Positions 2,010 through 50,622 of a stretch of DNA of 64,000 nucleotides are shown in pieces. Location of the stretch: positions 480,001 through 544,000 of the forward strand of contig CP000067.1 of NCBI GenBank assembly GCA_000002445.1, read 5' to 3'. Position 1 is the stretch's first letter. The number at the start of each line of letters is the position of its first letter. The notes under the pieces are model-generated. The model had not been told where the DNA came from. It did no database searches and was given only the letters and a program-made list of their open reading frames with translations. The translations under genes were made by a program, and so were the position numbers. This DNA is from Trypanosoma brucei. Taxonomy: Eukaryota.

Positions 2010-2027
2010 AAAATAATAACAATAATG

Positions 2028-2075
<48 letters not shown>

Positions 2076-2078
2076 GCT
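2010..2078. repeat. (ATA)n / (AAT)n microsatellite, about 22 units
   Basis: aataataataataataataataataataataataataataataataac read directly. Many shorter (TA)n, (CA)n, (GT)n, (CCAT)n and homopolymer tracts occur throughout 1..5700. Confidence 0.95.
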
Positions 2079-5771: not shown

Positions 5772-6503
5772 TTACGAAGTCTGTCCCTCTTCATTTACTG
5801 AAACAATGACAGGTCGCCCATTAACATACACACGCTTACAGGGAACCCGCATCACAGAGGTGCCTCCTGCCGCTGCCGCCACCACCGGAGCTGCAGGTAC
5901 AGGCGTTGATACAACTGCAGGAGCTGCCCGACTTGGCGTGACGCCGAATCCCGCGGTATTACCTCCAGCAGCACGTCGGAACCCTCCCTGCTTTACACCA
6001 GTGCGGGTTGTTGTTGATGATGATGATGATGCGCCATTGTTATTGTTGATGGTGACAGTTGGGTATGCGGCAGCGGTGGTTCCTCGGGACGCTGGCTGGT
6101 GGTAAAGCGGCCGGTTTGTAGCTTGCGGTACGGTGCTGAAGCTGCTATTGGCACTGTTGCTGAAGTGCGAATTACCCTCATCGCTGTGGGACATGATGAA
6201 ACTCATTTCTGCTGTAAAGGGTGAGCGGGGTACACACGGCAAACCGTCATTTGAGGTTCTGCAGTAGGGATCGTGTGTATGGCGTGTTGACGCAACGGGC
6301 TCTTCCACCACAGTGGAAATGGGTCTCAAGTGACCACGGAAAACGTTAGAAGCGGAGGACTTCATCGTGGCGGGACGCGGGGCACCGTTAATAATATTGT
6401 CTGAATTACTAATGGCGTTTGTGCAGTCCATTAGAGGGGAGCCGAACGAGGCGACAGCAGTGGAACCGACGGCTGGGTACGCTTGCATGTTAAAGGAAGA
6501 CAT
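5772..6503 (-). CDS. hypothetical low-complexity protein (Ser/Thr/Ala/Asn-rich), 243 aa
   Basis: Longest ORF in a GC-richer island directly next to the AT-rich gene-free region. Same strand as all neighbouring genes. No recognisable domain; the protein is compositionally biased. Confidence 0.4.
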   Translation of the reverse strand: MSSFNMQAYPAVGSTAVASFGSPLMDCTNAISNSDNIINGAPRPATMKSSASNVFRGHLRPISTVVEEPVASTRHTHDPYCRTSNDGLPCVPRSPFTAEMSFIMSHSDEGNSHFSNSANSSFSTVPQATNRPLYHQPASRGTTAAAYPTVTINNNNGASSSSSTTTRTGVKQGGFRRAAGGNTAGFGVTPSRAAPAVVSTPVPAAPVVAAAAGGTSVMRVPCKRVYVNGRPVIVSVNEEGQTS

Positions 6504-7280
6504 GACGTATATAATATGGATTTATGTACCTTTGTAACCCTCAAGAGCTTATGTTATGTAGCCTTTTTTTTTCTTCTTTTCTCTTCGTTCGTCTCTTCCG
6601 TACCTTCACAAGTCGTAACACTTGCAAAACTGCGGTTTCGTTCCTCGTTAAATGTTAGAAAACTAGCACTTATCTTTCTCTTTTCCTTTGATTCGTTCAG
6701 CTTTTTATGACTGCTGCAAAGTTTTTTCCTTTGTTCTTGCCGTCTCTTTTCTTTTCCTTTTCGACAAAAATGCTTTTGTAATACCTTTGGAAAGATTACT
6801 AGAATTTTCACTTGGCAGCACAGTGATTGGAGCAAATCGAAAGAAAAAAAGGGGGAGTAGTTTATTCAACACAGTTACGAATTTGCAACAAATCGCTAAA
6901 TCAGGGGAAGAGAAAAGGGAACAGCGACATGCAAAAACAAACAAAAATAAACTGACAAAGCCCTGCACAACACACAAACACACCGGTATACACCAATAGA
7001 GCGACAGGGGGGGGATGATACAGCGCCAGCTTAGAGAATCTCACCTTTGAATATATCAAAAAGAGCTAGCAAGAGAAAAACACTGTTAGTGGAGGAAAGG
7101 AGAGAATCTCTATCGTCAGGCAACGCCACCAACCAACCAACCAACAACCATAAAGAGGGAGCATCACATGCAACAACACCCGCTACAGGAGGCCAAACAG
7201 ATGTACTAGATAAATGCGAAACTATGTGCAAACAGGTGCGCACCTTCACTTGCACGCTAACATTCGTCTTCGGTATTCAC

Positions 7281-34497: not shown

Positions 34498-36336
34498 TTA
34501 CGGAGCAGAAGGCAACCTCGCCGATTGTTCATTCATAAGAGAGAGCTGACGCTCAAACGCCCGTTTGTTCAACGTTCGCAACGATGTCATCAATTCCTCT
34601 AGGGCTTGCTGATGGGTCTCCATCCACTCCTTCTGCTCAACAAAAGACTGCAAGCGCGAGTCCAGCAGCGCCAGCGTCATCTTTACAGAAGCTCTCGATT
34701 TCTCTGAACAGGCCGCCGCATTATCTAACTCCGTAATTAGCGGAGGAACCTCGTCGTCCCGTGTACCCCAGAACACACGCTGCAATGTCAAAGAGACGGT
34801 ACGGAACGTCTGCCTGACGCGCTGGCTCTCCGCCTCATTCTCATTGAGGATGTCCCGCTCGTTTATGGTCTCCTTCTCGGAGACTTTTATGAAAGATGCA
34901 TGCTCTTCCCGCAGTATTGTGAGACGGTCTTGGAGCGTCCTAATGATATTCTCCAGTGCTGCTTCGTACTGTTTTACAATTGTCTCATTCGTCTTCTCCC
35001 CCCTCACGCCACTGGCACCGCGGCGTGCACGTGACTCTTCTTGCCGCTTCTGATGATCCTCAGCGAGTTTTGTGTCCCAGAACGACTGTAGCTGCTGCTT
35101 GAGCGCAAGTGTGTTATTCTCATAAATAACTGCATCAGATTGCCGAGCCTCTTCAGAGAGCTTTAGAGCCTCCGACAGCTTCTGGATTTCACTCCGCGCT
35201 TCCGTTTCCGATTCCTGAGTCTTCTCGAGCACTATTGCCATCTCTTCCATCCGCCCCATAAGCTTTGCAAATTCCTCCGCCCGATCAGGGTCGGCATTTG
35301 ACATCGGTGAGCGACCGGCATGGGGCACATCGCCGTTAGTAGCTTCGTTCTTGGTGCGCAGTTTGGCGCGCAAGTTCTCGATAACAACGTCCTTCTCCAG
35401 GAGCTGTTCCTCAAACTCACGCTCCTTCGCCTCCATCTCCTTCTTATTTTCCTGAATAATCGCGGCCACGAGTTCGCTGTTACGGTGGGCAAGTTTTTCA
35501 TTGCGCGCCCGCTCCCGCTTTATGGCCTCAATGGCCTTCTTCCGTTCCTCTTCAAGAGAGTTCTTCTGCTCCGTCATCTGCTGCAGTAATGCCTCAAGAT
35601 CATTGTTGATACCAACCAACTCCCGCTCCCTCTCATCAACCTTCTCCTGCAAATCTTTAAGCGCCTTCTCATGATCGCGAATCAGTTTCTCTATCCGCTT
35701 ATCATTCTCATCCTTCAATCTGGCGATCATCGCCTTGGTTTCTGCCTCCAGTTCTGCATTGCGCTTGAGTAACGCATCAACACCGTCAGGTGGTGCATCA
35801 CGATTTGCATAGAGGCGCATCACCTCGCGAAACGGGTACAAATCAACACGCTGCTGAATTTCTTCCTCGTCAATATCCGCGTCGTGAGTGACGTGAAATG
35901 TGACGTACAAACTGCCAAGTCGAAGCTCCCGCAGTGCGACATTTTCCAACGGCACATCACATGCAGCAGCGGCATCCTTCACAAACACGTCACAGAGTGC
36001 CACCATGTGGTTGTCAAGCACACACTTCCATCCGTCGCCGTCGAAACGCCTCGTGTGCTGTGTTGTAATCATTTCCACGGACGACAATGAGGTCGACGAA
36101 GACATTCCTTCAACCAGATCACTCGTGTTAGACGGAACCGCGTCAGACGCCACATCCACGGGTTGCGCTTGCTTCACAAGCTGCAAGTAACCGCCCACCT
36201 GAGGGCTACCCACAATTTCGGAAGACCATGCCACCTCCACTCCAACAGAAGCCTCCATGACTCTCCGGTAAGCTGACGTTGATAAAATGAATGCCCTTAG
36301 CTCGCTCTCTGTACGTATATATATATATCCTCTCAC
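34498..36336 (-). CDS. hypothetical coiled-coil protein (612 aa)
   Basis: Long ORF. The central part is dominated by charged heptads (KRNAELEAETKAMIARLKDENDKRIEKLIRDHEKALKDLQEKVDERERELV...). No catalytic motif. Confidence 0.65.
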   Translation of the reverse strand: MRGYIYIRTESELRAFILSTSAYRRVMEASVGVEVAWSSEIVGSPQVGGYLQLVKQAQPVDVASDAVPSNTSDLVEGMSSSTSLSSVEMITTQHTRRFDGDGWKCVLDNHMVALCDVFVKDAAAACDVPLENVALRELRLGSLYVTFHVTHDADIDEEEIQQRVDLYPFREVMRLYANRDAPPDGVDALLKRNAELEAETKAMIARLKDENDKRIEKLIRDHEKALKDLQEKVDERERELVGINNDLEALLQQMTEQKNSLEEERKKAIEAIKRERARNEKLAHRNSELVAAIIQENKKEMEAKEREFEEQLLEKDVVIENLRAKLRTKNEATNGDVPHAGRSPMSNADPDRAEEFAKLMGRMEEMAIVLEKTQESETEARSEIQKLSEALKLSEEARQSDAVIYENNTLALKQQLQSFWDTKLAEDHQKRQEESRARRGASGVRGEKTNETIVKQYEAALENIIRTLQDRLTILREEHASFIKVSEKETINERDILNENEAESQRVRQTFRTVSLTLQRVFWGTRDDEVPPLITELDNAAACSEKSRASVKMTLALLDSRLQSFVEQKEWMETHQQALEELMTSLRTLNKRAFERQLSLMNEQSARLPSAP

Positions 36337-37254
36337 CTCCCTTCAGAGCACCTTTGAAACAAATACGCCAATGACAACAAACAACTGCCAACGAAAGATT
36401 TGAATGCACCTACAAAATGAGGTTACTCTAATATGACCAATAGGGTTACTGGGTGCTCATCGAAAAAAAAAAGCAGAGGAGTGTTAAACATACATATACA
36501 CCTTTTTCAAATGACTACAAAGTGCAAAGGTATCTGACAACTTCTCCCGACCAGCGTGGTATTATTATTATTATTTAAAAGCGCAAGAATTTGGGCGTAC
36601 TACCACAATATGTCGCACTCAGCATGCCCTGTGAACATATGTAATACGACAAAAGCACAAGCCATCACATGCCGCATCAACGGGGCGAAAAACCGAGTGC
36701 ACAAACGCAATCAATCACCCGATCAGTCCACCGTTTTTCAGGTGCCCCCCCCCCAAAAAACCACCTCATCACCAGAAGCATCAGAGACAGGAGGAAAGGC
36801 ATATATTACGCCTTCCAATAGCACTAAAATGCTGCCACCGCAGAATAGAGGCAGTTTGACCATACTGTTCCACTGGAGATTCAGTGGTAAACCGCCACGA
36901 ACTGATTTTGAAAGAAAAAACAAGCATTCGAACCCTTCCCCGACACCTACGTTAACAAATATAAGAGTAACGGAAAAACAGAAGAGTGCAACAGTGATAA
37001 GAAACACAATGCGCCACACCACCGTCAGATATTAGAAATGGCAAATTACACAGAAGTAAATGTTGATTCACTGAATAACAAAAAAAGGCTTCATACAGCA
37101 AAAACGTACATTGCAACGAAACACTGCACTTAAGTAAAAATAAAGGAACATCACCATACATCCAATAGAAAAAAATGTAAGTAGCAATAATACGTATTTA
37201 AAAATGTCAAAATTGTCAGCAACAAAGATGCTTACACGAACAGAAAAAAAAAGA

Positions 37255-40200
37255 CTACGCCTCATTTCCACGCAGTTCTTCACGAAGAGCTTTAACCTCA
37301 TCCTCTAGTCTCTTTATAACTAAGTCATTACACTTTCTCAGCTCCTCTTGAGACTCCACATAATACTTCATCGTCTCCTCCTGAACCCTTATAGACTCTC
37401 TCAGCTTTAGCACCCTCTTGGCCAGGACAGAACAAAGATGGCAATCATTAACATCGGACAGACTTGAAAGAAGAGAAGAACCTTCAAAAGCATCACCACT
37501 TCCACCACGATACGAAACACACAAAGACCCACAATCATCATTTATTTTGGACACAACAGCATCATCTTCTTCACAACGAGAAGCGGCAAGAGCCGAAGAA
37601 AGAGGAAAGCCAACTTCCTCCTTCACCTTAAGTGGGGGCACACAGGTACCCGCATCACCACCAGCACCCTCCGTGGCACCCCTTCGGTCGAGGTCAACTC
37701 CACCACCAAACAGGGAATTACTGCCATCCACAGGGCAAAGAACATTACTAGAAATCGCACCTCCAACGTTACCAGATTTTAAAAACACCACATCATGATC
37801 ATCGGAAACGACTCGACAACCCATAACTCTAAGAGCATCAGCAACACAATGACCAACTGTTTTTTCACAAAGAAAAGCACTATCCTTAGAAACCTTAACA
37901 TTCATATTATCCACAGTAGAATACGCAAAATCATTCACAGCACTCCCACAAACATTGGTACATTGCAGAGCTTCATACTTTTCATTCAAAGCCCGTAATG
38001 ATTTAAGTTCATCCTCCATGGCAGAATTCGAACGCCTCGCAGCTTCATACTGTTCATTCAAGGACCGTAATGATTTAAGTTCATCCTCCATTGCAGTATT
38101 ACTACGTTGTAGAGTTTCATACTGTTCATTCAAAGCTCGCAATGATTTAAGTTCATCCTCCATGTCAGAATTCGAACGTCTCGCAGCTTCATACTGTTCA
38201 TTCAAAGCTCGCAATGATTTAAGTTCATCCTCCATGGCAGAATTCGAACGCCTCGCAGCTTCATACTGTTCATTCAAGGACCGTAATGATTTAAGTTCAT
38301 CCTCCATGGCAGTATTACTACGTTGTAGAGTTTCATACTGTTCATTCAAAGCTCGCAATGATTTAAGTTCATCCTCCATGTCAGAATTCGAACGTCTCAC
38401 AGCTTCATACTGTTCATTCGCAGCTCGCAATGAATCAAGTTCTTCCTCCATGGCAGCATTGGTACGTTGCAGAGTTTCATACTGTTCATTCAAAGCTCGC
38501 AATGAATCAAGTTCTTCCTCCATGGCAGCATTGGTACGTTGAAGAGTTTCATACTGTTCATTCAAAGCTCGCAATGAATCAAGTTCATCCTCCATGGCAG
38601 CATTGGTACGTTGCAGAGTTTCATACTGTTCATTCAAAGCTCGCAATGAATCAAGTTCATCTTCCATGGCAGCATTGGTACGTTGCAGAGTTTCATACTG
38701 TTCATTCAAAGCTCGCAATGAATCAAGTTCATCTTCCATGGCAGCATTTAAATGCCGAAGTTCCTCAAGCTCCTCATTCACGGCCTTCTCTTCTTTAGAT
38801 TGCTCTCTTATACCCTCATCAAGTTCCTCAAGTCGGCTGAGATGTCGTTGAAGTGTTGATTCTTCTGTGGTTTCATGAGCTCCGCCAGCGGTGCCGCTAT
38901 TGTTAGCAGGCTTTTTATACTCCTCCATGACGCAATTGATTATTTCCCTTGATTTCTCCTTGATAAATTCGCAACGATATTCTGCCACTTCCTTGAGTCG
39001 TTCAATCTCCTTTAACTTCCTCTCTAGGTTGAGAATCTGCCCGGTCATTGTACTTATAACGTTCCCACTTTCATTGCATTCCCTCTTAAATTCCCTATAG
39101 ACGTTCAAGATATCTAGATCCTCAGCAACAACATCTCGCAATGAATCAAGTTCTTCCTCCATGGCAGCATTAGTACGCTGCAGAGTTTCATACTGTTCAT
39201 TCACAGCTCGCAATGAATCAAGTTCATCCTCCATAGCAGCATTAGTACGTTGCAGAGTTTCATACTGTTCATTCAAAGCTCGCAATGAATCAAGTTCTTC
39301 CTCCATGGCAGCATTGGCACGCTGCAGAGTTTCATACTGTTCATTCAAAGCTCGCAATGAATCAAGTTCTTCCTCCATGGCAGCATTAGTACGTTGCAGA
39401 GTTTCATACTCAGCAACAACATCTCGCAATGAATCGAGTTCATCCTCCATGGCAGCATTGGTACGTTGCAGAGTTTCATACTGTTCATTCACAGCTCGCA
39501 ATGAATCAAGTTCATCCTCCATGGCAGCATTGGTACGTTGCAGAGTTTCATACTGTTCATTCAAAGCTCGCAATGAATCAAGTTCTTCCTCCATGGCAGC
39601 ATTGGCACGCTGCAGAGTTTCATACTGTTCATTCACAGCTCGCAATGAATCAAGTTCATCCTCCATAGCAGCATTAGTACGTTGCAGAGTTTCATACTGT
39701 TCATTCACAGCTCGCAATGAATCAAGTTCATCTTCCATGGCAGCATTGGTACGTTGCAGAGTTTCATACTGTTCATTCACAGCTCGCAATGAATCAAGTT
39801 CATCCTCCATGGCAGCATTGGTACGTTGCAGAGTTTCATACTGTTCATTCAAAGCTCGCAATGAATCAAGTTCATCTTCCATGGCAGCATTAGTACGCTG
39901 CAGAGTTTCATACTGTTCATTCACAGCTCGCAATGAATCAAGTTCATCTTCCATGGCAGCATTGGCACGCTGCAGAGTTTCATACTGTTCATTCAAAGCT
40001 CGCAATGAATCAAGTTCATCCCCCATGGCAGCATTTAAATGCCGAAGTTCCTCAAGCTCCTCATTCACGGCCTTCTCTTCTTTAGATTGCTCTCTTATAC
40101 CCTCATCAAGTTCCTCAAGTCGGCTGAGATGTCGTTGAAGTGTTGATTCTTCTGTGGTTTCATGAGCTCCGCCAGCGGTGCCGCTATTGTTAGCAGGCTT

Positions 40201-43200
40201 TTTATACTCCTCCATGACGCAATTGATTATTTCCCTTGATTTCTCCTTGATAAATTCGCAACGATATTCTGCCACTTCCTTGAGTCGTTCAATCTCCTTT
40301 AACTTCCTCTCTAGGTTGAGAATCTGCCCGGTCATTGTACTTATAACGTTCCCACTTTCATTGCATTCCCTCTTAAATTCCCTATAGACGTTCAAGATAT
40401 CTAGATCCTCAGCAACAACATCTCGCAATGAATCGAGTTCTTCCTCCATGGCAGCATTAGTACGCTGCAGAGTTTCATACTGTTCATTCACAGCTCGCAA
40501 TGAATCAAGTTCATCCTCCATAGCAGCATTAGTACGTTGCAGAGTTTCATACTGTTCATTCAAAGCTCGCAATGAATCAAGTTCATCCTCCATGGCAGCA
40601 TTGGCACGCTGCAGAGTTTCATACTGTTCATTCAAAGCTCGCAATGAATCAAGTTCTTCCTCCATGGCAGCATTAGTACGTTGCAGAGTTTCATACTGTT
40701 CATTCAAAGCTCGCAATGAATCAAGTTCTTCCTCCATGGCAGCATGAGTACGTTGCAGAGTTTCATACTGTTCATTCAAAGCTCGCAATGAATCAAGTTC
40801 TTCCTCCATGGCAGCATGAGTACGTTGCAGAGTTTCATACTGTTCATTCAAAGCTCGCAATGAATCAAGTTCATCCTCCATAGCAGCGTTGGCACGCTGC
40901 AGAGTTTCATACTGTTCATTCACAGCTCGCAATGAATCAAGTTCATCTTCCATGGCAGCATTGGTACGTTGCAGAGTTTCATACTGTTCATTCACAGCTC
41001 GCAATGAATCAAGTTCATCCTCCATGGCAGCATTGGTACGTTGCAGAGTTTCATACTGTTCATTCACAGCTCGTAATGAATCAAGTTCATCTTCCATGGC
41101 AGCATTGGTACGTTGCAGAGTTTCATACTGTTCATTCAAAGCTCGCAATGAATCAAGTTCATCTTCCATGGCAGCATTTAAATGCCGAAGTTCCTCAAGC
41201 TCCTCATTCACGGCCTTCTCTTCTTTAGATTGCTCTCTTATACCCTCATCAAGTTCCTCAAGTCGGCTGAGATGTCGTTGAAGTGTTGATTCTTCTGTGG
41301 TTTCATGAGCTCCGCCAGCGGTGCCGCTATTGTTAGCAGGCTTTTTATACTCCTCCATGACGCAATTGATTATTTCCCTTGATTTCTCCTTGATAAATTC
41401 GCAACGATATTCTGCCACTTCCTTGAGTCGTTCAATCTCCTTTAACTTCCTCTCTAGGTTGAGAATCTGCCCGGTCATTGTACTTATAACGTTCCCACTT
41501 TCATTGCATTCCCTCTTAAATTCCCTATAGACGTTCAAGATATCTAGATCCTCAGCAACAACATCTCGCAATGAATCGAGTTCTTCCTCCATGGCAGCAT
41601 TAGTACGCTGCAGAGTTTCATACTGTTCATTCACAGCTCGCAATGAATCAAGTTCATCCTCCATAGCAGCATTAGTACGTTGCAGAGTTTCATACTGTTC
41701 ATTCAAAGCTCGCAATGAATCAAGTTCATCCTCCATGGCAGCATTGGCACGCTGCAGAGTTTCATACTGTTCATTCAAAGCTCGCAATGAATCAAGTTCT
41801 TCCTCCATGGCAGCATTAGTACGTTGCAGAGTTTCATACTGTTCATTCAAAGCTCGCAATGAATCAAGTTCTTCCTCCATGGCAGCATTAGTACGTTGCA
41901 GAGTTTCATACTGTTCATTCAAAGCTCGCAATGAATCAAGTTCTTCCTCCATGGCAGCATGAGTACGTTGCAGAGTTTCATACTGTTCATTCAAAGCTCG
42001 CAATGAATCAAGTTCTTCCTCCATGGCAGCATGAGTACGTTGCAGAGTTTCATACTGTTCATTCAAAGCTCGCAATGAATCAAGTTCTTCCTCCATGGCA
42101 GCATTAGTACGTTGCAGAGTTTCATACTGTTCATTCAAAGCTCGCAATGAATCAAGTTCATCCTCCATAGCAGCGTTGGCACGCTGCAGAGTTTCATACT
42201 GTTCATTCACAGCTCGCAATGAATCAAGTTCATCTTCCATGGCAGCATTGGTACGTTGCAGAGTTTCATACTGTTCATTCACAGCTCGCAATGAATCAAG
42301 TTCATCCTCCATGGCAGCATTGGTACGTTGCAGAGTTTCATACTGTTCATTCACAGCTCGTAATGAATCAAGTTCATCTTCCATGGCAGCATTGGTACGT
42401 TGCAGAGTTTCATACTGTTCATTCAAAGCTCGCAATGAATCAAGTTCATCTTCCATGGCAGCATTTAAATGCCGAAGTTCCTCAAGCTCCTCATTCACGG
42501 CCTTCTCTTCTTTAGATTGCTCTCTTATACCCTCATCAAGTTCCTCAAGTCGGCTGAGATGTCGTTGAAGTGTTGATTCTTCTGTGGTTTCATGAGCTCC
42601 GCCAGCGGTGCCGCTATTGTTAGCAGGCTTTTTATACTCCTCCATGACGCAATTGATTATTTCCCTTGATTTCTCCTTGATAAATTCGCAACGATATTCT
42701 GCCACTTCCTTGAGTCGTTCAATCTCCTTTAACTTCCTCTCTAGGTTGAGAATCTGCCCGGTCATTGTACTTATAACGTTCCCACTTTCATTGCATTCCC
42801 TCTTAAATTCCCTATAGACGTTCAAGATATCTAGATCCTCAGCAACAACATCTCGCAATGAATCGAGTTCTTCCTCCATGGCAGCATTAGTACGCTGCAG
42901 AGTTTCATACTGTTCATTCACAGCTCGCAATGAATCAAGTTCATCCTCCATAGCAGCATTAGTACGTTGCAGAGTTTCATACTGTTCATTCAAAGCTCGC
43001 AATGAATCAAGTTCATCCTCCATGGCAGCATTGGCACGCTGCAGAGTTTCATACTGTTCATTCAAAGCTCGCAATGAATCAAGTTCTTCCTCCATGGCAG
43101 CATTAGTACGTTGCAGAGTTTCATACTGTTCATTCAAAGCTCGCAATGAATCAAGTTCTTCCTCCATGGCAGCATTAGTACGTTGCAGAGTTTCATACTG

Positions 43201-46200
43201 TTCATTCAAAGCTCGCAATGAATCAAGTTCTTCCTCCATGGCAGCATGAGTACGTTGCAGAGTTTCATACTGTTCATTCAAAGCTCGCAATGAATCAAGT
43301 TCTTCCTCCATGGCAGCATGAGTACGTTGCAGAGTTTCATACTGTTCATTCAAAGCTCGCAATGAATCAAGTTCTTCCTCCATGGCAGCATTAGTACGTT
43401 GCAGAGTTTCATACTGTTCATTCAAAGCTCGCAATGAATCAAGTTCATCCTCCATAGCAGCGTTGGCACGCTGCAGAGTTTCATACTGTTCATTCACAGC
43501 TCGCAATGAATCAAGTTCATCTTCCATGGCAGCATTGGTACGTTGCAGAGTTTCATACTGTTCATTCACAGCTCGCAATGAATCAAGTTCATCCTCCATG
43601 GCAGCATTGGTACGTTGCAGAGTTTCATACTGTTCATTCACAGCTCGTAATGAATCAAGTTCATCTTCCATGGCAGCATTGGTACGTTGCAGAGTTTCAT
43701 ACTGTTCATTCAAAGCTCGCAATGAATCAAGTTCATCTTCCATGGCAGCATTTAAATGCCGAAGTTCCTCAAGCTCCTCATTCACGGCCTTCTCTTCTTT
43801 AGATTGCTCTCTTATACCCTCATCAAGTTCCTCAAGTCGGCTGAGATGTCGTTGAAGTGTTGATTCTTCTGTGGTTTCATGAGCTCCGCCAGCGGTGCCG
43901 CTATTGTTAGCAGGCTTTTTATACTCCTCCATGACGCAATTGATTATTTCCCTTGATTTCTCCTTGATAAATTCGCAACGATATTCTGCCACTTCCTTGA
44001 GTCGTTCAATCTCCTTTAACTTCCTCTCTAGGTTGAGAATCTGCCCGGTCATTGTACTTATAACGTTCCCACTTTCATTGCATTCCCTCTTAAATTCCCT
44101 ATAGACGTTCAAGATATCTAGATCCTCAGCAACAACATCTCGCAATGAATCGAGTTCTTCCTCCATGGCAGCATTAGTACGCTGCAGAGTTTCATACTGT
44201 TCATTCACAGCTCGCAATGAATCAAGTTCATCTTCCATGGCAGCATTGGTACGTTGCAGAGTTTCATACTGTTCATTCAAAGCTCGCAATGAATCAAGTT
44301 CTTCCTCCATGGCAGCATTAGTACGTTGAAGAGTTTCATACTGTTCATTCGCAGCTCGCAATGAATCAAGTTCATCTTCCATGGCAGCATTGGTACGTTG
44401 CAGAGTTTCGTACTGTTCATTCGCAGCTCGCAATGAATCAAGTTCATCTTCCATGGCAGCATTAGTACGTTGCAGAGTTTCATACTGTTCATTCAAAGCT
44501 CGCAATGAATCAAGTTCTTCCTCCATGGCAGCATTAGTACGTTGAAGAGTTTCATACTGTTCATTCGCAGCTCGCAATGAATCAAGTTCTTCCTCCATGG
44601 CAGCATTGGTACGTTGCAGAGTTTCGTACTGTTCATTCACAGCTCGCAATGAATCAAGTTCTTCCTCCATGGCAGCATTAGTACGTTGCAGAGTTTCATA
44701 CTGTTCATTCGCAGCTCGCAATGAATCAAGTTCTTCCTCCATGGCAGCATTAGTACGTTGCAGAGTTTCATACTGTTCATTCGCAGCTCGCAATGAATCA
44801 AGTTCTTCCTCCATGGCAGCATTGGCACGCTGCAGAGTTTCATACTGTTCATTCGCAGCTCGCAATGAATCAAGTTCATCTTCCATGGCAGCATTGGTAC
44901 GTTGCAGAGTTTCATACTGTTCATTCAAAGCTCGCAATGAATCAAGTTCTTCCTCCATGGCAGCATTAGTACGTTGCAGAGTTTCATACTGTTCATTCAA
45001 AGCTCGCAGCGAATCAAGTTCATCCTCCATAGCAGCATTGGTACGTTGTAGAGCTTCATACTGTTCATTCACAGCTCGCAGCGAATCAAGTTCTTCCTCC
45101 ATGGCAGCATTAGTACGTTGTAGAGTTTCATACTGTTCATTCACAGCTCGCAGCGAATCAAGTTCATCCTCCATAGCAGCATTGGTACGTTGTAGAGCTT
45201 CATACTGTTCATTCACAGCTCTCAGTGAATCAAGTTCTTCCTCCATGGCAGCATTGGTACGTTGTAGAGCTTCATACTGTTCATTCACAGCTCTCAGTGA
45301 ATCAAGTTCTTCCTCCATGGCAGCATTAGTACGTTGTAGAGTTTCATACTGTTCATTCACAGCTCGCAATGAATCAAGTTCTTCCTCCATGGCAGCATTG
45401 GTACGTTGCAGAGTTTCATACTGTTCATTCACAGCTCTCAATGAATCAAGTTCATCCTCCATGGCAGCATTGGTACGTTGCAGAGTTTCATACTGTTCAT
45501 TCAAAGCTCGCAATGAATCAAGTTCTTCCTCCATGGCAGCATTAGTACGTTGCAGAGTTTCATACTGTTCATTCAAAGCTCGCAGCGAATCAAGTTCATC
45601 CTCCATAGCAGCATTGGTACGTTGTAGAGCTTCATACTGTTCATTCACAGCTCGCAGCGAATCAAGTTCTTCCTCCATGGCAGCATTAGTACGTTGTAGA
45701 GTTTCATACTGTTCATTCACAGCTCGCAGCGAATCAAGTTCATCCTCCATAGCAGCATTGGTACGTTGTAGAGCTTCATACTGTTCATTCACAGCTCTCA
45801 GTGAATCAAGTTCTTCCTCCATGGCAGCATTGGTACGTTGTAGAGCTTCATACTGTTCATTCACAGCTCTCAGTGAATCAAGTTCTTCCTCCATGGCAGC
45901 ATTAGTACGTTGTAGAGTTTCATACTGTTCATTCACAGCTCGCAATGAATCAAGTTCTTCCTCCATGGCAGCATTGGTACGTTGCAGAGTTTCATACTGT
46001 TCATTCACAGCTCTCAATGAATCAAGTTCATCCTCCATGGCAGCATTGGTACGTTGCAGAGTTTCATACTGTTCATTCACAGCTCGCAATGAATCAAGTT
46101 CATCCTCCATGGCAGCATGAGTACGTTGCAGAGTTTCATACTGTTCATTCACAGCTCGCAATGAATCAAGTTCATCCTCCATGGCAGCATTGGTACGTTG

Positions 46201-49200
46201 CAGAGTTTCATACTGTTCATTCAAAGCTCGTAATGAATCAAGTTCTTCCTCCATGGCAGCATTAGTACGTTGTAGAGTTTCATACTGTTCATTCACAGCT
46301 CGCAATGAATCAAGTTCATCCTCCATAGCAGCATTGGTACGTTGCAGAGTTTCATACTGTTCATTCAAAGCTCGTAATGAATCAAGTTCTTCCTCCATGG
46401 CAGCATTAGTACGTTGAAGAGTTTCATACTGTTCATTCGCAGCTCGTAACGAATCAAGTTCATCCTCCATGGCAGCATTGGTACGTTGCAGAGTTTCATA
46501 CTGTTCCTTCAAAGCTCTCAGTGAATCAAGTTCATCCTCCATGGCAGCATTAGTACGTTGCAGAGTTTCATACTGTTCATTCGCAGCTCTCAGTGAATCA
46601 AGTTCATCCTCCATGGCAGCATTAGTACGTTGAAGAGTTTCATACTGTTCATTCAAAGCTCTCAGTGAATCAAGTTCATCCTCCATGGCAGCATGAGTAC
46701 GTTGAAGAGTTTCATACTGTTCATTCGCAGCTCTCAGTGAATCAAGTTCTTCCTCCATGGCAGCATTAGTACGTTGAAGAGTTTCATACTGTTCATTCAA
46801 AGCTCGCAATGAATCAAGTTCATCTTCCATAACAGCATTAGTACGTTGCAGAGTTTCATACTGCTCATTCAAAGCTCTCAGTGAATCAAGTTCTTCCTCC
46901 ATGGCAGCATTAGTACGTTGAAGAGTTTCATACTGTTCATTCGCAGCTCTCAGTGAATCAAGTTCTTCCTCCATGGCAGCATTAGTACGTTGTAGAGTTT
47001 CATACTGTTCATTCGCAGCTCTCAGTGAATCAAGTTCATTCTGTATTTTATCGTTTGTTGTTCTATCTTCTTTCAGTTGCTTTGGTGTAGCTTGCAGTGG
47101 TTGTTGTTCAATAGCTACTCTGGTGTCTTTATTGCTGTCTTCTTTATACTGTTCATTCAAAGCTCTCAGTGAATCGAGTTCATTTATTATATCTTCGTTG
47201 GTGCGGCGGAGATTTTCATATTGTTCATTCACAGCTCTCAGTGAATCAAGTTCTTCCTCCATGTTGGGGTCGAAGTGCCGCGTGCTTCTTCCTCTTTTTT
47301 TTAATGCCCGTAAATACTCGAGTTGAGCTTCTACTTCGGCATTCAGTTGCTGAAGTATTTTGTACTCTTCTGTGTATTTTCTTTTTTCTGCTATATCGCG
47401 TTCATCGTCAATAATCTTCTCTTTTGTGTTTTTTTCCTGTTTTTTCAGTATACGATGCGTAGGTTGATCTTTTTCGGCACTTATGTTTACATGCTGCAGA
47501 GTTTCACACTGTTCTTTGAAAGCTCGTAACAACTTAAGCTCATTCCCCATATCCTCATTTGTCCGTCTTGCTGCTTTAAGTTCCTTTTGAACGACCCACA
47601 GTGGTTGGTTGCCAACTCCAATATCAGCAGTGGTACGTTGCAGAGCTTCATACTGTTCATTCGCAGCTCGTAACGAATCAAGTTCATCCTCCATGGCAGC
47701 ATTGGTACGTTGCATAGCTTCATACTGTTCATTCACAGCTCGCAATGAATCAAGTTCATCCTCCATAGCAGCATTGGTACGTTGCATAGCTTCATACTGT
47801 TCATTCACAGCTCTCAATGAATCAAGTTCATCCTCTATGGCAGCATTGGTACGTTGCATAGCTTCATACTGTTCATTCACAGCTCTCAATGAATCAAGTT
47901 CATCCTCTATGGCAGCATTGGTACGTTGCATAGCTTCATACTGTTCATTCACAGCTCGCAACGAATCAAGTTCATCCTCCATGGCAGCATTGGTACGTTG
48001 CAGAGTTTCATACTGTTCATTCACAGCTCGCAATGAATCAAGTTCATCCTCCATAGCAGCATTGGTACGTTGCATAGCTTCATACTGTTCATTCACAGCT
48101 CTCAATGAATCAAGTTCATCCTCCATGGCAGCATTGGTACGTTGCAGAGTTTCATACTGTTCATTCAAAGCTCGCAATGAATCAAGTTCTTCCTCCATGG
48201 CAGCATTAGTACGTTGCAGAGTTTCATACTGTTCATTCACAGCTCGTAATGAATCAAGTTCATCCTCTATGGCAGCATTGGTACGTTGCATAGCTTCATA
48301 CTGTTCATTCACAGCTCTCAATGAATCAAGTTCATCCTCTATGGCAGCATTGGTACGTTGCGCGGTATCTTTGTTGACTGTGCTTTCAATGGAAATTATA
48401 CGCTGTTGTTGTTGCTGAGACTGGCTCTCTACGTCAGCGGCAAACTCTGTACAACATTGAGTTGGGTTTGACTCCTTCGTTTTTTTTATTTTTGGGGATG
48501 GCTGTTGTTTTTTGCTTCTTTTATGTGGTGTTTGGTCGGCTTTATACTTTGTTAACTTGAGGTGCTCTCGGGCCTCCTTACTGTCCGCTTGTGTTTTGCG
48601 TACTTTATGTGTTTTATCCTTTTCCTCTCTGCTTATTTTTGTTGCTACTTCTTTTTTACTCTTTTTGTGATCAACTGCCGTTCGTGCGGTAAGCTTTTTT
48701 GTAGTGCGTGCCCCTTCTTCCCTATCGCTTGTGACTGAATTGCTGCTAATGTTTGCTGCTGATGGCAACCTCTTTAGTATTTCTCCCCCCTCGTTTGTGT
48801 ATGTCTTGTCTTCATTTTCTTTGGGGAGGTGTGTGTCACTCTGGGAACGAGGGGAATCTGTGTGCTCTTGTGCTTCTGAAGAAATTATAGCTGTCCCCTT
48901 CCCTTTCTTCTTCGCTGCAGTTGCTTTGGTGGATGTCTTGGATAAACGTGACTGCTTACCGGTATCGTGATCCCCAGTAGCGTCGACATCCGTATTAGCT
49001 GCTGCCGTGTGTGTGTCTTTTGTATTTGTTACCCGACTGTGCGCTGACCGAGCCGCGTCGCTTTGCGAAAACCCGCACATCCCCTTGTCATCCTTTTCCT
49101 CATCAGCCGTAACAACCAGGGGGCCGTGCCGACCTGTGTGAATCGCTGCATTGGTGGACTTTCTTTCCTGATCGGGGACCATCCCGTGTCGGTCGTCCAA

Positions 49201-50622
49201 TCCCTCCTCCATACTGTTTCTCTCCTCCAGGAACCGTTGGAGTTCGATTGTATGCTTGAAGCTCCCTTCAGAACAAGGAAGTTGGTTATGTTGCGTGGAA
49301 ACATCCTCTCCTTGTGTAGCGACCAATAAACCTCCTTCATCGATAGCGTTTTGCAGCTTCTTTATTATTCCCTCCAACATATCATTGGTCCTTTGAAGCT
49401 CCTCAAGGGAATGGATCAACTCGCCCTGTCGCCTCGCAGACTCTTCCTCCGCCTTCTGAGCCTCTTCCAACTGGCCTCGGAGGACTTTGTTCTCTCTCTC
49501 ACAAATAGCCAACTGTTGCAGAAGCGTTCTGTTTTCACTCCGAATGTTCTCCATTTCTGTTCGAAGTTCAGCCGCATCCTTCTCCACAACCTTTATTCGT
49601 TCGTCCTCGTCGACACTGTGCTGACCACGTTCTAACGAAGCGTCACTGCACGCTCCCACAACATCCGGCTTACTAGAAGACAAGCCCACCTTGTTTTTGG
49701 AATTCACATACTTGAGGCTGTCGGATTGCAACGTGATGTACCTCCACAGCTCTGACCGGTGAATTGTCGCTATTTTGGGGATGCTGCCTTCTATCAACGC
49801 TGTCGGGATGATAGAAGATCGAAGAATGGTTTTCTCTGGCATCGGTAGGTCATCGAGGGCGTTCCCCCCTTCAACCGCCGCAAGACGATCCTGAATATCC
49901 CTGATAGCAAGGACAATACGTTCCAGATGTTCTTGGGAAGATGCAGCTAGCGTAGTGGCTGCCACATGGTTATGATTCACGTAGTTTAGCTGAGCCTTCA
50001 CCCATTGATGGAGTGGCCCCGCAGCACGTGACGCCACCGAAGCATCGTCGTCGCTGATATCGTTGCTCCTGCAGCGCTTGATGATCTCGTTTCGGCGCTC
50101 GGGAGGCAGCTTTGAAGGGTCAAAACTGAGGACACGTGCTATAAAGCCCGGTTGCCTGAGTTGTGCGCGCAGCTCAGCCCAAGTAGAGGTGGGTAAAGTG
50201 ATACCCAATATAATGAGAATGTCATCCAATATTTTCCTTACAATGGGCGGTGGTGACACATATGACTGAAGCTCTCGGAAGCAAGCACCTTCGATTCCTT
50301 CAACCATGGTGTTAGCACGCTCAACTTGGATTCTCAACGATGCGATACGCTCCTCCTCAACGGCTGCTCTTCCATTCCGTAGTTGTTGGCGTAGTGCAAG
50401 CAGTTGCTCTTTATATGCGGTTGCCCTCTCATCCACGTCTTGTGAAGGGCTATTGTTTGCTACGGAAACACGAGCCACATAATCGGAAAGAAATGTTACA
50501 TACCCCTTCTCGTAGCACCAAGAATCGTCTCTCAGCGTATCAAACGCAACTAAGTCACCGACAGAGACGACATCAGATTTCACTTGAGATAATACTGATT
50601 CATCAAACTCCAAGATCTCCAT
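37255..50622 (-). CDS. giant repetitive coiled-coil protein, 4455 aa. It has a unique N-terminal domain and a basic K/S/T-rich region, then about 120 copies of a 23-aa repeat (EELDSLRALNEQYETLQRTNAAM) with five interspersed 130-aa modules. Possibly a cytoskeletal / flagellum-attachment-zone type repetitive antigen.
   Basis: Single uninterrupted 13.4 kb ORF. The 69 bp period is visible directly in the DNA. All other frames give only the short periodic artefact ORFs listed in the track. From memory, T. brucei has an 'antigenic protein, putative' next to CC2D. Confidence 0.85.
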   Translation of the reverse strand: MEILEFDESVLSQVKSDVVSVGDLVAFDTLRDDSWCYEKGYVTFLSDYVARVSVANNSPSQDVDERATAYKEQLLALRQQLRNGRAAVEEERIASLRIQVERANTMVEGIEGACFRELQSYVSPPPIVRKILDDILIILGITLPTSTWAELRAQLRQPGFIARVLSFDPSKLPPERRNEIIKRCRSNDISDDDASVASRAAGPLHQWVKAQLNYVNHNHVAATTLAASSQEHLERIVLAIRDIQDRLAAVEGGNALDDLPMPEKTILRSSIIPTALIEGSIPKIATIHRSELWRYITLQSDSLKYVNSKNKVGLSSSKPDVVGACSDASLERGQHSVDEDERIKVVEKDAAELRTEMENIRSENRTLLQQLAICERENKVLRGQLEEAQKAEEESARRQGELIHSLEELQRTNDMLEGIIKKLQNAIDEGGLLVATQGEDVSTQHNQLPCSEGSFKHTIELQRFLEERNSMEEGLDDRHGMVPDQERKSTNAAIHTGRHGPLVVTADEEKDDKGMCGFSQSDAARSAHSRVTNTKDTHTAAANTDVDATGDHDTGKQSRLSKTSTKATAAKKKGKGTAIISSEAQEHTDSPRSQSDTHLPKENEDKTYTNEGGEILKRLPSAANISSNSVTSDREEGARTTKKLTARTAVDHKKSKKEVATKISREEKDKTHKVRKTQADSKEAREHLKLTKYKADQTPHKRSKKQQPSPKIKKTKESNPTQCCTEFAADVESQSQQQQQRIISIESTVNKDTAQRTNAAIEDELDSLRAVNEQYEAMQRTNAAIEDELDSLRAVNEQYETLQRTNAAMEEELDSLRALNEQYETLQRTNAAMEDELDSLRAVNEQYEAMQRTNAAMEDELDSLRAVNEQYETLQRTNAAMEDELDSLRAVNEQYEAMQRTNAAIEDELDSLRAVNEQYEAMQRTNAAIEDELDSLRAVNEQYEAMQRTNAAMEDELDSLRAVNEQYEAMQRTNAAMEDELDSLRAANEQYEALQRTTADIGVGNQPLWVVQKELKAARRTNEDMGNELKLLRAFKEQCETLQHVNISAEKDQPTHRILKKQEKNTKEKIIDDERDIAEKRKYTEEYKILQQLNAEVEAQLEYLRALKKRGRSTRHFDPNMEEELDSLRAVNEQYENLRRTNEDIINELDSLRALNEQYKEDSNKDTRVAIEQQPLQATPKQLKEDRTTNDKIQNELDSLRAANEQYETLQRTNAAMEEELDSLRAANEQYETLQRTNAAMEEELDSLRALNEQYETLQRTNAVMEDELDSLRALNEQYETLQRTNAAMEEELDSLRAANEQYETLQRTHAAMEDELDSLRALNEQYETLQRTNAAMEDELDSLRAANEQYETLQRTNAAMEDELDSLRALKEQYETLQRTNAAMEDELDSLRAANEQYETLQRTNAAMEEELDSLRALNEQYETLQRTNAAMEDELDSLRAVNEQYETLQRTNAAMEEELDSLRALNEQYETLQRTNAAMEDELDSLRAVNEQYETLQRTHAAMEDELDSLRAVNEQYETLQRTNAAMEDELDSLRAVNEQYETLQRTNAAMEEELDSLRAVNEQYETLQRTNAAMEEELDSLRAVNEQYEALQRTNAAMEEELDSLRAVNEQYEALQRTNAAMEDELDSLRAVNEQYETLQRTNAAMEEELDSLRAVNEQYEALQRTNAAMEDELDSLRALNEQYETLQRTNAAMEEELDSLRALNEQYETLQRTNAAMEDELDSLRAVNEQYETLQRTNAAMEEELDSLRAVNEQYETLQRTNAAMEEELDSLRAVNEQYEALQRTNAAMEEELDSLRAVNEQYEALQRTNAAMEDELDSLRAVNEQYETLQRTNAAMEEELDSLRAVNEQYEALQRTNAAMEDELDSLRALNEQYETLQRTNAAMEEELDSLRALNEQYETLQRTNAAMEDELDSLRAANEQYETLQRANAAMEEELDSLRAANEQYETLQRTNAAMEEELDSLRAANEQYETLQRTNAAMEEELDSLRAVNEQYETLQRTNAAMEEELDSLRAANEQYETLQRTNAAMEEELDSLRALNEQYETLQRTNAAMEDELDSLRAANEQYETLQRTNAAMEDELDSLRAANEQYETLQRTNAAMEEELDSLRALNEQYETLQRTNAAMEDELDSLRAVNEQYETLQRTNAAMEEELDSLRDVVAEDLDILNVYREFKRECNESGNVISTMTGQILNLERKLKEIERLKEVAEYRCEFIKEKSREIINCVMEEYKKPANNSGTAGGAHETTEESTLQRHLSRLEELDEGIREQSKEEKAVNEELEELRHLNAAMEDELDSLRALNEQYETLQRTNAAMEDELDSLRAVNEQYETLQRTNAAMEDELDSLRAVNEQYETLQRTNAAMEDELDSLRAVNEQYETLQRANAAMEDELDSLRALNEQYETLQRTNAAMEEELDSLRALNEQYETLQRTHAAMEEELDSLRALNEQYETLQRTHAAMEEELDSLRALNEQYETLQRTNAAMEEELDSLRALNEQYETLQRTNAAMEEELDSLRALNEQYETLQRANAAMEDELDSLRALNEQYETLQRTNAAMEDELDSLRAVNEQYETLQRTNAAMEEELDSLRDVVAEDLDILNVYREFKRECNESGNVISTMTGQILNLERKLKEIERLKEVAEYRCEFIKEKSREIINCVMEEYKKPANNSGTAGGAHETTEESTLQRHLSRLEELDEGIREQSKEEKAVNEELEELRHLNAAMEDELDSLRALNEQYETLQRTNAAMEDELDSLRAVNEQYETLQRTNAAMEDELDSLRAVNEQYETLQRTNAAMEDELDSLRAVNEQYETLQRANAAMEDELDSLRALNEQYETLQRTNAAMEEELDSLRALNEQYETLQRTHAAMEEELDSLRALNEQYETLQRTHAAMEEELDSLRALNEQYETLQRTNAAMEEELDSLRALNEQYETLQRTNAAMEEELDSLRALNEQYETLQRANAAMEDELDSLRALNEQYETLQRTNAAMEDELDSLRAVNEQYETLQRTNAAMEEELDSLRDVVAEDLDILNVYREFKRECNESGNVISTMTGQILNLERKLKEIERLKEVAEYRCEFIKEKSREIINCVMEEYKKPANNSGTAGGAHETTEESTLQRHLSRLEELDEGIREQSKEEKAVNEELEELRHLNAAMEDELDSLRALNEQYETLQRTNAAMEDELDSLRAVNEQYETLQRTNAAMEDELDSLRAVNEQYETLQRTNAAMEDELDSLRAVNEQYETLQRANAAMEDELDSLRALNEQYETLQRTHAAMEEELDSLRALNEQYETLQRTHAAMEEELDSLRALNEQYETLQRTNAAMEEELDSLRALNEQYETLQRANAAMEDELDSLRALNEQYETLQRTNAAMEDELDSLRAVNEQYETLQRTNAAMEEELDSLRDVVAEDLDILNVYREFKRECNESGNVISTMTGQILNLERKLKEIERLKEVAEYRCEFIKEKSREIINCVMEEYKKPANNSGTAGGAHETTEESTLQRHLSRLEELDEGIREQSKEEKAVNEELEELRHLNAAMGDELDSLRALNEQYETLQRANAAMEDELDSLRAVNEQYETLQRTNAAMEDELDSLRALNEQYETLQRTNAAMEDELDSLRAVNEQYETLQRTNAAMEDELDSLRAVNEQYETLQRTNAAMEDELDSLRAVNEQYETLQRANAAMEEELDSLRALNEQYETLQRTNAAMEDELDSLRAVNEQYETLQRTNAAMEDELDSLRDVVAEYETLQRTNAAMEEELDSLRALNEQYETLQRANAAMEEELDSLRALNEQYETLQRTNAAMEDELDSLRAVNEQYETLQRTNAAMEEELDSLRDVVAEDLDILNVYREFKRECNESGNVISTMTGQILNLERKLKEIERLKEVAEYRCEFIKEKSREIINCVMEEYKKPANNSGTAGGAHETTEESTLQRHLSRLEELDEGIREQSKEEKAVNEELEELRHLNAAMEDELDSLRALNEQYETLQRTNAAMEDELDSLRALNEQYETLQRTNAAMEDELDSLRALNEQYETLQRTNAAMEEELDSLRALNEQYETLQRTNAAMEEELDSLRAANEQYEAVRRSNSDMEDELKSLRALNEQYETLQRSNTAMEDELKSLRSLNEQYEAARRSNSAMEDELKSLRALNEQYEAARRSNSDMEDELKSLRALNEQYETLQRSNTAMEDELKSLRSLNEQYEAARRSNSAMEDELKSLRALNEKYEALQCTNVCGSAVNDFAYSTVDNMNVKVSKDSAFLCEKTVGHCVADALRVMGCRVVSDDHDVVFLKSGNVGGAISSNVLCPVDGSNSLFGGGVDLDRRGATEGAGGDAGTCVPPLKVKEEVGFPLSSALAASRCEEDDAVVSKINDDCGSLCVSYRGGSGDAFEGSSLLSSLSDVNDCHLCSVLAKRVLKLRESIRVQEETMKYYVESQEELRKCNDLVIKRLEDEVKALREELRGNEA
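37960..48400. repeat. in-frame tandem array of 69 bp units (about 120 copies) inside the giant CDS, with sequence subtypes
   Basis: Direct reading: ...gcagcattggtacgttgcagagtttcatactgttcattcaaagctcgcaatgaatcaagttcatcctccatg... recurs every 69 nt. Variants (caatgaatc / cagcgaatc / cagtgaatc; tcaaagc / tcacagc / tcgcagc) mark subtypes. Confidence 0.95.
38740..44140. repeat. five near-identical higher-order repeat units (about 1287 bp; one about 1143 bp), each holding a 393 bp non-69mer module plus about 13 69-bp units
   Basis: The identical 69-aa artefact ORFs (MPLLLAGFLYSSMTQLIISLDF...) start at 38891, 40178, 41321, 42608 and 43895. Spacings are 1287, 1143, 1287 and 1287 bp, and the surrounding DNA is essentially identical. 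Confidence 0.9.

Follow-up and report, generated by a model that had tools for sequence, protein, structure and literature searches.

A dynein-type microtubule-binding domain predicted at the N-terminus of the giant repeat protein Tb927.4.2070 of Trypanosoma brucei

We analyse here a 13.4-kb gene on the minus strand of a stretch of 64,000 nucleotides of Trypanosoma brucei DNA (contig CP000067.1, positions 480,001 to 544,000; hereafter the window, in which all positions are counted), and we show, on the basis of sequence homology and a predicted structure, that the N-terminal ~275 amino acids (aa) of its product form a compact head, in which a short antiparallel stalk carries a dynein-type microtubule-binding domain (MTBD). 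The gene, at 37255-50622 on the minus strand, is a single unbroken open reading frame (ORF) with an ATG start, 4455 aa and one terminal stop, in agreement with an earlier sequence-only reading that had noticed the uninterrupted 13.4-kb minus-strand ORF at exactly these coordinates. We identify it as Tb927.4.2070, "antigenic protein, putative" (AGP), because the four primers that were published for this gene, for tagging and for RNA interference (RNAi), by DuBois et al. 2012 (PMC3313915; the main text gives no result for Tb927.4.2070) all match the window exactly, with zero mismatches. The C-terminal tagging primers fall on 37258-37344 (minus strand), which are the last 29 codons, and on 37162-37254 (plus strand), which are the 93 bases directly past the stop, and the RNAi primers map to 49399-49418 and 48823-48842, within the N-terminal region. 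An exact-product look-up of the 4455-aa protein returned zero records. The product has a computed mass of 511 kDa and a computed pI of 4.4, and peptides of Tb927.4.2070 were detected in three independent proteomic studies. The gene was thus already annotated, and earlier records give how large it is, that its repeat is of 24 aa and roughly where its product localises; what is new here is the assignment of the head domain, the head family and the conserved 24/7 geometry of the repeats. With these we propose, as a reading that we hold to be moderately probable, that AGP is a giant non-motor microtubule-associated protein (MAP) of the cortical (subpellicular) microtubule corset, in which a static dynein-type MTBD head, helped by a basic region, would be the anchor and a segmented rod of up to ~0.5 um would serve as a spacer, cross-linker or tether.

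The dynein-type head and its family

The protein has the three-part layout that the sequence-only reading had drawn, with ~760 aa at the N-terminus, then the repeats (aa 761-4225) and finally a C-terminus of 230 aa. The gene and the elements of the head are as follows, where CC1 and CC2 are the two coiled-coil helices of the stalk and pLDDT is the predicted local distance difference test score of the AlphaFold model.

37255-50622, minus strand: complete coding sequence of Tb927.4.2070 (AGP), from the ORF list, the translation and the primer matches
50455-50565, minus strand: N-terminal part of a small beta-domain (aa 20-56; conserved G22, A26 and W35), predicted by AlphaFold with pLDDT 82-89
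50266-50448, minus strand: predicted outward stalk helix CC1 (aa 59-119), pLDDT 85-97, aligning to dynein CC1/H1
49969-50253, minus strand: predicted dynein-type MTBD helical core (aa 124-218; PP124-125, W148, G202, W207 and Y214; pI 9.5)
49870-49944, minus strand: predicted return stalk helix CC2 (aa 227-251), pLDDT >90, with whole-stalk matches to 5ayh and 3wuq
49804-49836, minus strand: EKTILRSSIIP motif (aa 263-273), which in the prediction supplies the last two strands of the beta-domain, pLDDT of the block 85

The homology of the head was found with a phmmer search of aa 1-330 against all PDB sequences, which gave an E-value of 1.1e-10 to the MTBD of mouse cytoplasmic dynein-1 (6rzb_C, 3err_A, 3wuq_A). 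Further independent matches were to dynein-2, to the axonemal DNAH2/6/10 and to the T. brucei and Leishmania axonemal heavy chains, with the query residues ~65-216 always aligning at the stalk/MTBD position of the dyneins. Moreover, a filter-free search of 1.84 billion representative proteins gave 606 matches, among which the true dynein heavy chains (4000-5800 aa) match at their residues ~3100-3500. The sequence-only reading had taken the N-terminal section as unique; the section is not featureless, and the dynein-type head within it, which tells the most about the protein, had escaped that reading.

Structure prediction gives the same picture. A first AlphaFold model, made with three sequences, is confident over aa 60-250 only, and a second one (m09eebb35b1a0), made with a family alignment of 15 sequences, has a mean pLDDT of 78, with values >90 across the MTBD. 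In the second model, helices are predicted at 59-108 and 112-119 (CC1), as six short helices within 126-218, and at 227-251 (CC2), and strands are predicted at 24-31, 34-45 and 49-54, joined by those at 263-267 and 271-273 after CC2. Because the strands that follow CC2 join the three N-terminal ones, the stalk-MTBD hairpin is, in this model, inserted within a small beta-domain (aa 24-54 and 263-273). The TILRSSII motif that holds the last two strands is invariant in the orthologues and recurs in other members of the family. The predicted head of AGP is thus an antiparallel coiled-coil stalk with a helical MTBD at its tip.

Compared with the dynein stalk and MTBD (mouse dynein-1; PDB 3ERR, 6RZB, 3WUQ/5AYH), the head is homologous in sequence (E 1e-10) and has the same predicted fold, namely an antiparallel coiled-coil hairpin at whose tip a small bundle of helices carries the PP...W...AAGP..W..Y signature, and it is closest to cytoplasmic dynein-1, with no long axonemal-type insertion before W148. 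By contrast, AGP has no AAA+ ring, no linker and no tail, and its hairpin is much shorter than the stalk of dynein, is embedded in a beta-domain and lies at the N-terminus of a 4455-aa repeat protein. A nucleotide-driven affinity switch cannot apply to it. Pfam finds no AAA+ or dynein motor domain in the N-terminal 763 aa, the repeat units, the repeat-region module described below or the C-terminal 251 aa; a dynein heavy chain has six AAA+ modules with a linker and a tail, and AGP is not one.

The head also belongs to a family. A hidden Markov model (HMM) of the N-terminal domain matches the orthologues in T. vivax, T. theileri, T. cruzi and T. conorhini at E 1e-22 to 1e-27, and the same HMM finds at least 17 further MTBD-containing proteins, at E 1e-12 to 1e-3, among its top 150 matches. 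The mark of the family, which AGP carries, is the beta-domain (G22, A26, W35) directly upstream of the stalk-MTBD hairpin. Its members include proteins of ~800-880 aa in T. cruzi, T. vivax and T. theileri, which are auto-annotated "dynein heavy chain, cytosolic, putative", and proteins of Angomonas, which are auto-annotated "Microtubule-binding stalk of dynein motor, putative" (examples are T. cruzi XP_803265.1, T. vivax CCD18672.1 and Angomonas CAD2220384.1); automated pipelines have therefore already detected the domain in relatives of AGP. The ~800-880-aa proteins share with AGP the beta-domain, the stalk and MTBD, often a TILxSSI-type strand, and then a coiled coil, but they are five-fold shorter, lack the 24-aa tandem array and have a head identity of 22-25%. 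They are paralogues of AGP rather than orthologues, and they are apparently uncharacterised. Searches of open-access papers gave nothing relevant on non-motor dynein-MTBD proteins, in trypanosomes or elsewhere, or on an MTBD protein in the subpellicular array.

It is noted that in other protists (Picozoa, Gefionella and unidentified metagenomic eukaryotes) short non-motor proteins with 2-5 tandem MTBD-like domains are seen, and free-standing dynein MTBDs may be widespread. The occurrence of the dynein MTBD on its own, outside motor proteins, both in the kinetoplastid head family (presently mislabelled 'dynein heavy chain') and in the multi-MTBD proteins of other protists, matters for genome annotation and for the evolution of the dynein stalk.

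The basic region, the repeat rod and its 24/7 geometry

Between the head and the repeats lies the lysine/serine/threonine-rich basic stretch that the sequence-only reading had pointed out, which we place at aa 561-745, with 41 K+R and 42 S+T in 185 aa. It is followed by the repeat rod. The features of this part of the gene are listed below.

48388-48942, minus strand: basic K/S/T-rich low-complexity region (aa 561-745, pI 9.8), from composition, with no Pfam match
37948-48342, minus strand: predicted repeat rod (aa 761-4225) of 110 units, degenerate units and five modules, from Tandem Repeats Finder (TRF), unit parsing, the hydrophobic period and the ratio of nonsynonymous to synonymous variation (pN/pS)
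47047-47622, minus strand: degenerate units and unique inserts inside the rod (aa 1001-1192), from gaps in the unit tiling
43741-44139, minus strand: 133-aa module, copy 1 (aa 2162-2294), one of the DNA-identical copies
42454-42852, minus strand: 133-aa module, copy 2 (aa 2591-2723), likewise DNA-identical
41167-41565, minus strand: 133-aa module, copy 3 (aa 3020-3152), likewise DNA-identical
40024-40422, minus strand: 133-aa module, copy 4 (aa 3401-3533), likewise DNA-identical
38737-39135, minus strand: 133-aa module, copy 5 (aa 3830-3962), likewise DNA-identical

TRF reports one array at 37953-48361, in which a 72-bp period is accompanied by super-periods at 144 bp and 216 bp, and its scores of 4098-8662 are far above the chance expectation. 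The unit is of 24 aa (72 bp), M-E-[E/D]-E-L-D-S-L-R-A-[L/V/A]-N-E-Q-Y-E-[T/A]-L-Q-R-T-N-A-A, with 106 of the 115 core anchors spaced exactly 24 aa, and 24-aa repeats in Tb927.4.2070 were likewise described by Bezerra et al. 2022. The sequence-only reading had given a unit of 23 aa (69 bp), EELDSLRA(L/V/A)NEQYETLQRTNAAM, in which one acidic residue is missing; this unit is rejected by the TRF period and by the anchor spacing. The same reading had counted roughly 120 copies, of which the tandem array stands but not the number, since there are 110 well-formed units, which match the consensus at no fewer than 12 of 24 residues and make up 59% of the protein, or 115 units by core anchors. The residues E4, L5, L8 and R9 are invariant across the units, and repeats and modules together make up ~74% of the protein.

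The array is broken up by a degenerate zone (aa 1001-1192) and by the five 133-aa modules, which have 100% DNA identity over 399 bp each and between which the units of the distal half stand in blocks of 11-13. Two neighbouring higher-order units of 1287 bp are also DNA-identical. Each module carries a Gly/Ser/Thr-rich stretch, KKPANNSGTAGGAHETTEES, which from its composition is probably a hinge. A Pfam scan of the module gave nothing significant, and the Pfam matches that were obtained with concatenated units (Spectrin, DASH_Duo1 and others) were set aside as compositional coiled-coil matches. The units are under purifying selection: when their 61 distinct DNA sequences are compared, pN/pS comes to 0.36 and the variability of the codon positions runs 3 > 1 > 2. 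The concerted evolution that had been suggested from the sequence is supported by the identical modules and higher-order units, and the repeats are thus both homogenised and selected at the protein level.

The rod has a period that is not the canonical one. In an uninterrupted block of 40 units the hydrophobic period peaks at 3.429, that is, at 24/7, with a moment of 1.05 there as compared with 0.03 at the heptad value of 3.5; the peak likewise departs from 3.5 in T. cruzi and T. vivax. There are seven core positions per unit (M1, L5, L8, L/V11 or N12, Y15, L18 and N22), which give a continuous amphipathic hydrophobic seam, and proline is sparse, with 10 Pro in the 3465 aa of the rod. The two-stranded coiled coil with 7-residue spacing of the sequence-only reading is therefore right only approximately, its plain heptad spacing being replaced by the 24/7 period. 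A 24/7 period corresponds to three heptads plus a 3-residue insertion, which is termed a "stammer" in coiled-coil terminology (the Gruber-Lupas classification). Conservation of an Asn in the core is a typical feature of parallel dimers, and its presence in these units suggests that the rod is a parallel dimer; as one continuous helix aa 761-4225 would be ~514 nm long.

The geometry is seen in the orthologues as well. The repeat of the T. cruzi orthologue, EKLDALQRQNEELQSQLKESRRGE, has a period of 24 with the moment peak at 3.425, and that of the T. vivax orthologue, KELEKLRGDNARLEAELKAAGASA, has a period of 24 with the peak at 3.41; L3, [D/E]4, L6, N10 and [Y/L]13 are common to the repeats of T. 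brucei, T. cruzi and T. vivax. As judged from these repeats, the 24-aa period and the 24/7 register are conserved while the sequence drifts. Known stammer coiled coils share with AGP the seven core positions per 24 residues, but in them the stammer is an isolated local defect, whereas in AGP it recurs in every unit, over more than 100 units, and is conserved across species. The AGP rod is in this respect a natural 24/7 example of more than 100 units, and it could model how coiled coils take up regularly spaced stammers.

Three minor observations on the array are added here. The last ~7 units (aa 4058-4225; 37948-38451) are a distinct variant subfamily (ELKSLR; RRSNS/QRSNT) that has a super-repeat of three units to itself, and by their look this end of the array is older or evolves separately. 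The plus-strand ORFs of 269-507 aa inside the array (39161-40138, 44597-46120 and 47609-48418) are antisense frames that are held open by the repeat, not genes. In the T. vivax orthologue an 11-glycine run interrupts the 24-aa repeats at about residues 750-765 and the protein ends out of register, which is probably an assembly or frameshift artefact at a locus that assembles poorly.

Localisation, proposed role and alternative explanations

In the TrypTag source data for Extended Data Fig. 6 of Billington et al. 2023 (PMC9981465), Tb927.4.2070 is among the seven "Anterior dorsal" proteins, a class that stands in the table for the cortical cytoskeleton that is based on microtubules, and in the screen of McAllaster et al. 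2015 for proximity partners of TbPLK by BioID it was in the detergent-insoluble cytoskeletal pellet fraction. This address on a microtubule array agrees with a head domain of dynein type. The sequence-only reading had expected a cytoskeletal or flagellum attachment zone (FAZ) protein and had named TrypTag as a check on the localisation; the cytoskeletal part of that expectation stands, from the pellet fraction and the cortical class, and the FAZ part is not supported, the TrypTag class being a cortical one.

Based on our proposal, the head would dock on the tubulin lattice in the fashion of a dynein MTBD, as a static anchor and not as a nucleotide-switched one. The basic region, which we propose to be either an additional tubulin contact of electrostatic nature or a region regulated by phosphorylation, would add electrostatic affinity for the acidic tubulin tails and would be the likely site of regulation by kinases. 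In the 3465-aa repeat region, alpha-helices would run in parallel as a coiled-coil rod with a length of up to ~0.5 um, the distal half of which would be segmented by the five hinge-containing modules. Lying along or across the corset microtubules, the rod would act as a spacer, a cross-linker or a ruler; alternatively, it would project inward and hold partners at the cortex, with the EIF4E3/EIF4G4 and ALBA4 messenger ribonucleoproteins (mRNPs) as the candidate partners.

Several points weigh against this proposal. Pfam finds nothing significant in the N-terminal 763 aa, nor in the first 330 aa up to E 10. When the residues that contact tubulin are mapped in mouse numbering, with E3289, K3298, E3378 and R3382 as anchors (PMC4987762), the H1 contact K3298 is replaced by a Glu (E111) that is invariant in all the trypanosome orthologues, the equivalent of K3299 is Gly, Ala or Ser, and the equivalent of R3382 is Val (V196) in T. 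brucei. The interface of the head thus differs from that of dynein and could have been repurposed, and microtubule binding by the head is what we infer from its sequence. The oligomeric state, the continuity and the orientation of the rod are likewise read from the sequence alone; moreover, a 24/7 period implies unusually tight supercoiling, and the units could form another helical assembly instead. The copy number, and hence the length of the rod, is assembly-dependent, because the array holds identical 1.3-kb repeats and because in the T. equiperdum assembly the gene is fragmented, into a 658-aa N-terminal and a 278-aa C-terminal piece. Finally, the TrypTag call is taken here from an entry in a source-data table and not from images, and an N-terminal Ty1 fusion was scored 'CYTO', not 'CORSET', by McAllaster et al. 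2015, at odds with TrypTag.

The residue replacements bear most directly on the possibility that the head keeps its fold but no longer binds microtubules, contacting another protein instead, so that the cortical address would be owed to the rod, the C-terminus or the basic region. The charge reversal at the K3298 equivalent, the missing K3299 and the Val (V196) in place of R3382 in T. brucei speak for it, and so does the stalk, being much shorter than that of dynein. We nevertheless consider it unlikely. The structural hallmarks (PP124-125, W148, G202, W207 and Y214) are conserved, basic residues are retained at the equivalents of K3316 and R3362, and the MTBD core has a pI of 9.5 as compared with 6.85 for the mouse core. 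In addition, the R3382 equivalent is Lys or Arg in T. vivax, T. theileri, T. cruzi, T. conorhini and Angomonas, that is, basic in five of the six family members compared, and in T. brucei R199 is one helical turn from V196; note also that AGP sits on a microtubule-based structure. On the homology and the predicted model, the fold of the head is certain, and its binding chemistry would be only partly dynein-like.

A second possibility is that AGP is a structural component of the FAZ filament, as its two neighbours are:

52617-55337, minus strand: upstream neighbour CC2D (Tb927.4.2080), a FAZ filament protein of 906 aa, with a Pfam C2 domain at E 1.9e-10
34498-36336, minus strand: downstream neighbour FAZ8 (Tb927.4.2060), with Pfam FAZ1_cons at E 8.5e-30

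The gene is flanked by these two FAZ filament proteins, other giant repetitive proteins (FAZ10, ClpGM6) are FAZ components, and AGP is a proximity match of TbPLK, a protein that visits the tip of the FAZ. Against this, the order of genes within trypanosome polycistrons does not normally reflect function. Moreover, in the FAZ sheet of the PMC9981465 source file Tb927.4.2060 and Tb927.4.2080 are "Whole FAZ" and Tb927.4.2070 stands in no FAZ class, the N-terminal tag gave 'CYTO' in a screen that scored nine FAZ proteins, and Pfam finds no FAZ1 conserved domain (PF23398, formerly Pfam-B 506, present in FAZ1/4/6/8/10) in the unique regions of AGP, in the same scan that gave the FAZ8 match listed above. 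We therefore hold this possibility to be very unlikely. It is noted that FAZ1_cons of FAZ8 was also considered as a diverged MTBD and was rejected, with a best BLASTP E of 0.11, in the coiled coil, and zero PDB matches.

A third possibility is that AGP is mainly a cytoplasmic scaffold of mRNPs and translation initiation, with the head as a mere anchor or vestigial. It was enriched with EIF4E3 and EIF4G4 relative to EIF4E4/EIF4G3 by Bezerra et al. 2022, it is a constitutive proximity partner of ALBA4, with or without glucose starvation, and one tagging study scored it 'CYTO'. By contrast, Pfam finds no RNA-binding or eIF-binding domain in the unique regions, and the head is the best-conserved part across species, which argues that the head is functional. 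It is also to be considered that very large, acidic and abundant repeat proteins are often background in affinity and proximity proteomics. With the cortical pattern in the TrypTag tables added, we regard this possibility as improbable; it partly overlaps with the corset proposal, since the tethering of mRNPs at the cortex would satisfy both.

The last possibility, that AGP is a golgin- or giantin-like vesicle tether, goes back to the array study of Koumandou et al. 2008, where the gene was labelled 'giantin' ('other trafficking') and was 1.8-3.1-fold up in bloodstream forms, and it has the long coiled-coil rod in its favour. We give it scarcely any credence. No transmembrane-grade hydrophobic segment was found in the protein, the maximum of the 19-residue hydropathy being 1.45, within the MTBD, and the C-terminal maximum 1.13; AGP thus lacks a tail anchor, and the 2008 label is rejected on this ground. 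In addition, Pfam finds no golgin domains, and no Golgi localisation is given in the published localisations examined.

Returning to the corset proposal, AGP, with its 511 kDa, 110 units, pellet fraction and cortical class, is a giant repetitive cytoskeletal protein. It is like FAZ10 (Tb927.7.3330), ClpGM6 (Tb927.11.1090), the MARPs (Tb927.10.10360) and NUP-1 (Tb927.2.4230), which are repetitive proteins of several hundred kDa, in having near-identical homogenised tandem repeats, in its cytoskeletal fraction and in the unique ends around a repeat core. It differs from them in the 24-aa repeat, in the anterior-dorsal cortex (as compared with the FAZ, the whole corset and the nuclear lamina) and in the dynein-type MTBD head. 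With PAVE1 (Tb927.8.2030) and other sub-domain MAPs it shares, by localisation, the confinement to one sub-domain of the subpellicular array; PAVE1 marks the posterior-ventral domain, and AGP is vastly larger and has the dynein-type MTBD. How the corset splits into molecularly distinct sub-domains is an open question, and TrypTag (PMC9981465) reported at least 10 corset sub-domains and no targeting mechanisms. With the present head, the anterior-dorsal marker AGP gains a concrete, testable candidate for a microtubule-binding module.

A bolder form of the proposal, which we put forward as speculative and regard as having a low probability, is that AGP would be the giant in a so far undescribed family of kinetoplastid proteins, which would use the MTBD of dynein, detached from the motor, as a static anchor on the lattice. 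In AGP this anchor would position the rod of about 0.5 um, with its conserved 24/7 period, and the rod would help to define the anterior-dorsal sub-domain of the corset and would hold the EIF4E3/EIF4G4-ALBA4 mRNPs at the cortex. If this is true, the sub-domains of cell shape would be linked to localised translation.

Remaining regions of the protein and the surrounding locus

Two further regions of AGP lie outside the head, the basic region and the rod.

49333-49620, minus strand: unique non-repeat segment (aa 335-430), putatively helical/coiled-coil as read from the sequence, which holds the RNAi forward primer
37258-37947, minus strand: unique C-terminal region (aa 4226-4455), Gly-rich and with 11 Cys, from hydropathy and composition

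The C-terminal region ends in a short helical/coiled-coil segment (aa ~4400-4455). Its 230 aa have zero matches in PDB, the C-terminal 251 aa gave nothing significant in Pfam, and the sole homologue found for the 230 aa is the T. equiperdum fragment. As to the immunodominant antigens that the sequence-only reading had mentioned, no serology was found in the papers searched, and only the database name 'antigenic protein' hints in this direction.

All the large ORFs of the window are on the minus strand, as is expected for a kinetoplastid polycistron. The CC2D-like neighbour of the sequence-only reading is CC2D itself, 52617-55337 encoding a coiled coil and a C2 domain, and both CC2D and FAZ8 are listed among the FAZ proteins in the table of Sunter & Gull 2016. 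FAZ8, AGP and CC2D are three adjacent large coiled-coil cytoskeletal genes (34498-55337). The rest of the polycistron (7281-29456) holds ordinary housekeeping genes, namely an AP-complex mu subunit, a RuvB-like TIP49, an SUV3 helicase, a CNNM-type transporter, an NADPH-cytochrome P450 reductase-like flavoprotein, a WD40 protein and an RRM protein. No tRNA genes were found across the 64-kb window.

The first 5 kb (1-5000) is strongly AT-rich, with GC of 0.28-0.37 as compared with ~0.49 elsewhere, has no long ORFs and holds an (AAT)~21 microsatellite at 2012-2073; a long stretch between genes or the boundary of a polycistron may lie here. Upstream of CC2D, 55400-64000 has zero ORFs of at least 250 aa, and the GC skew flips its sign near 60 kb; the region may hold a strand switch or may be where the minus-strand polycistron begins.

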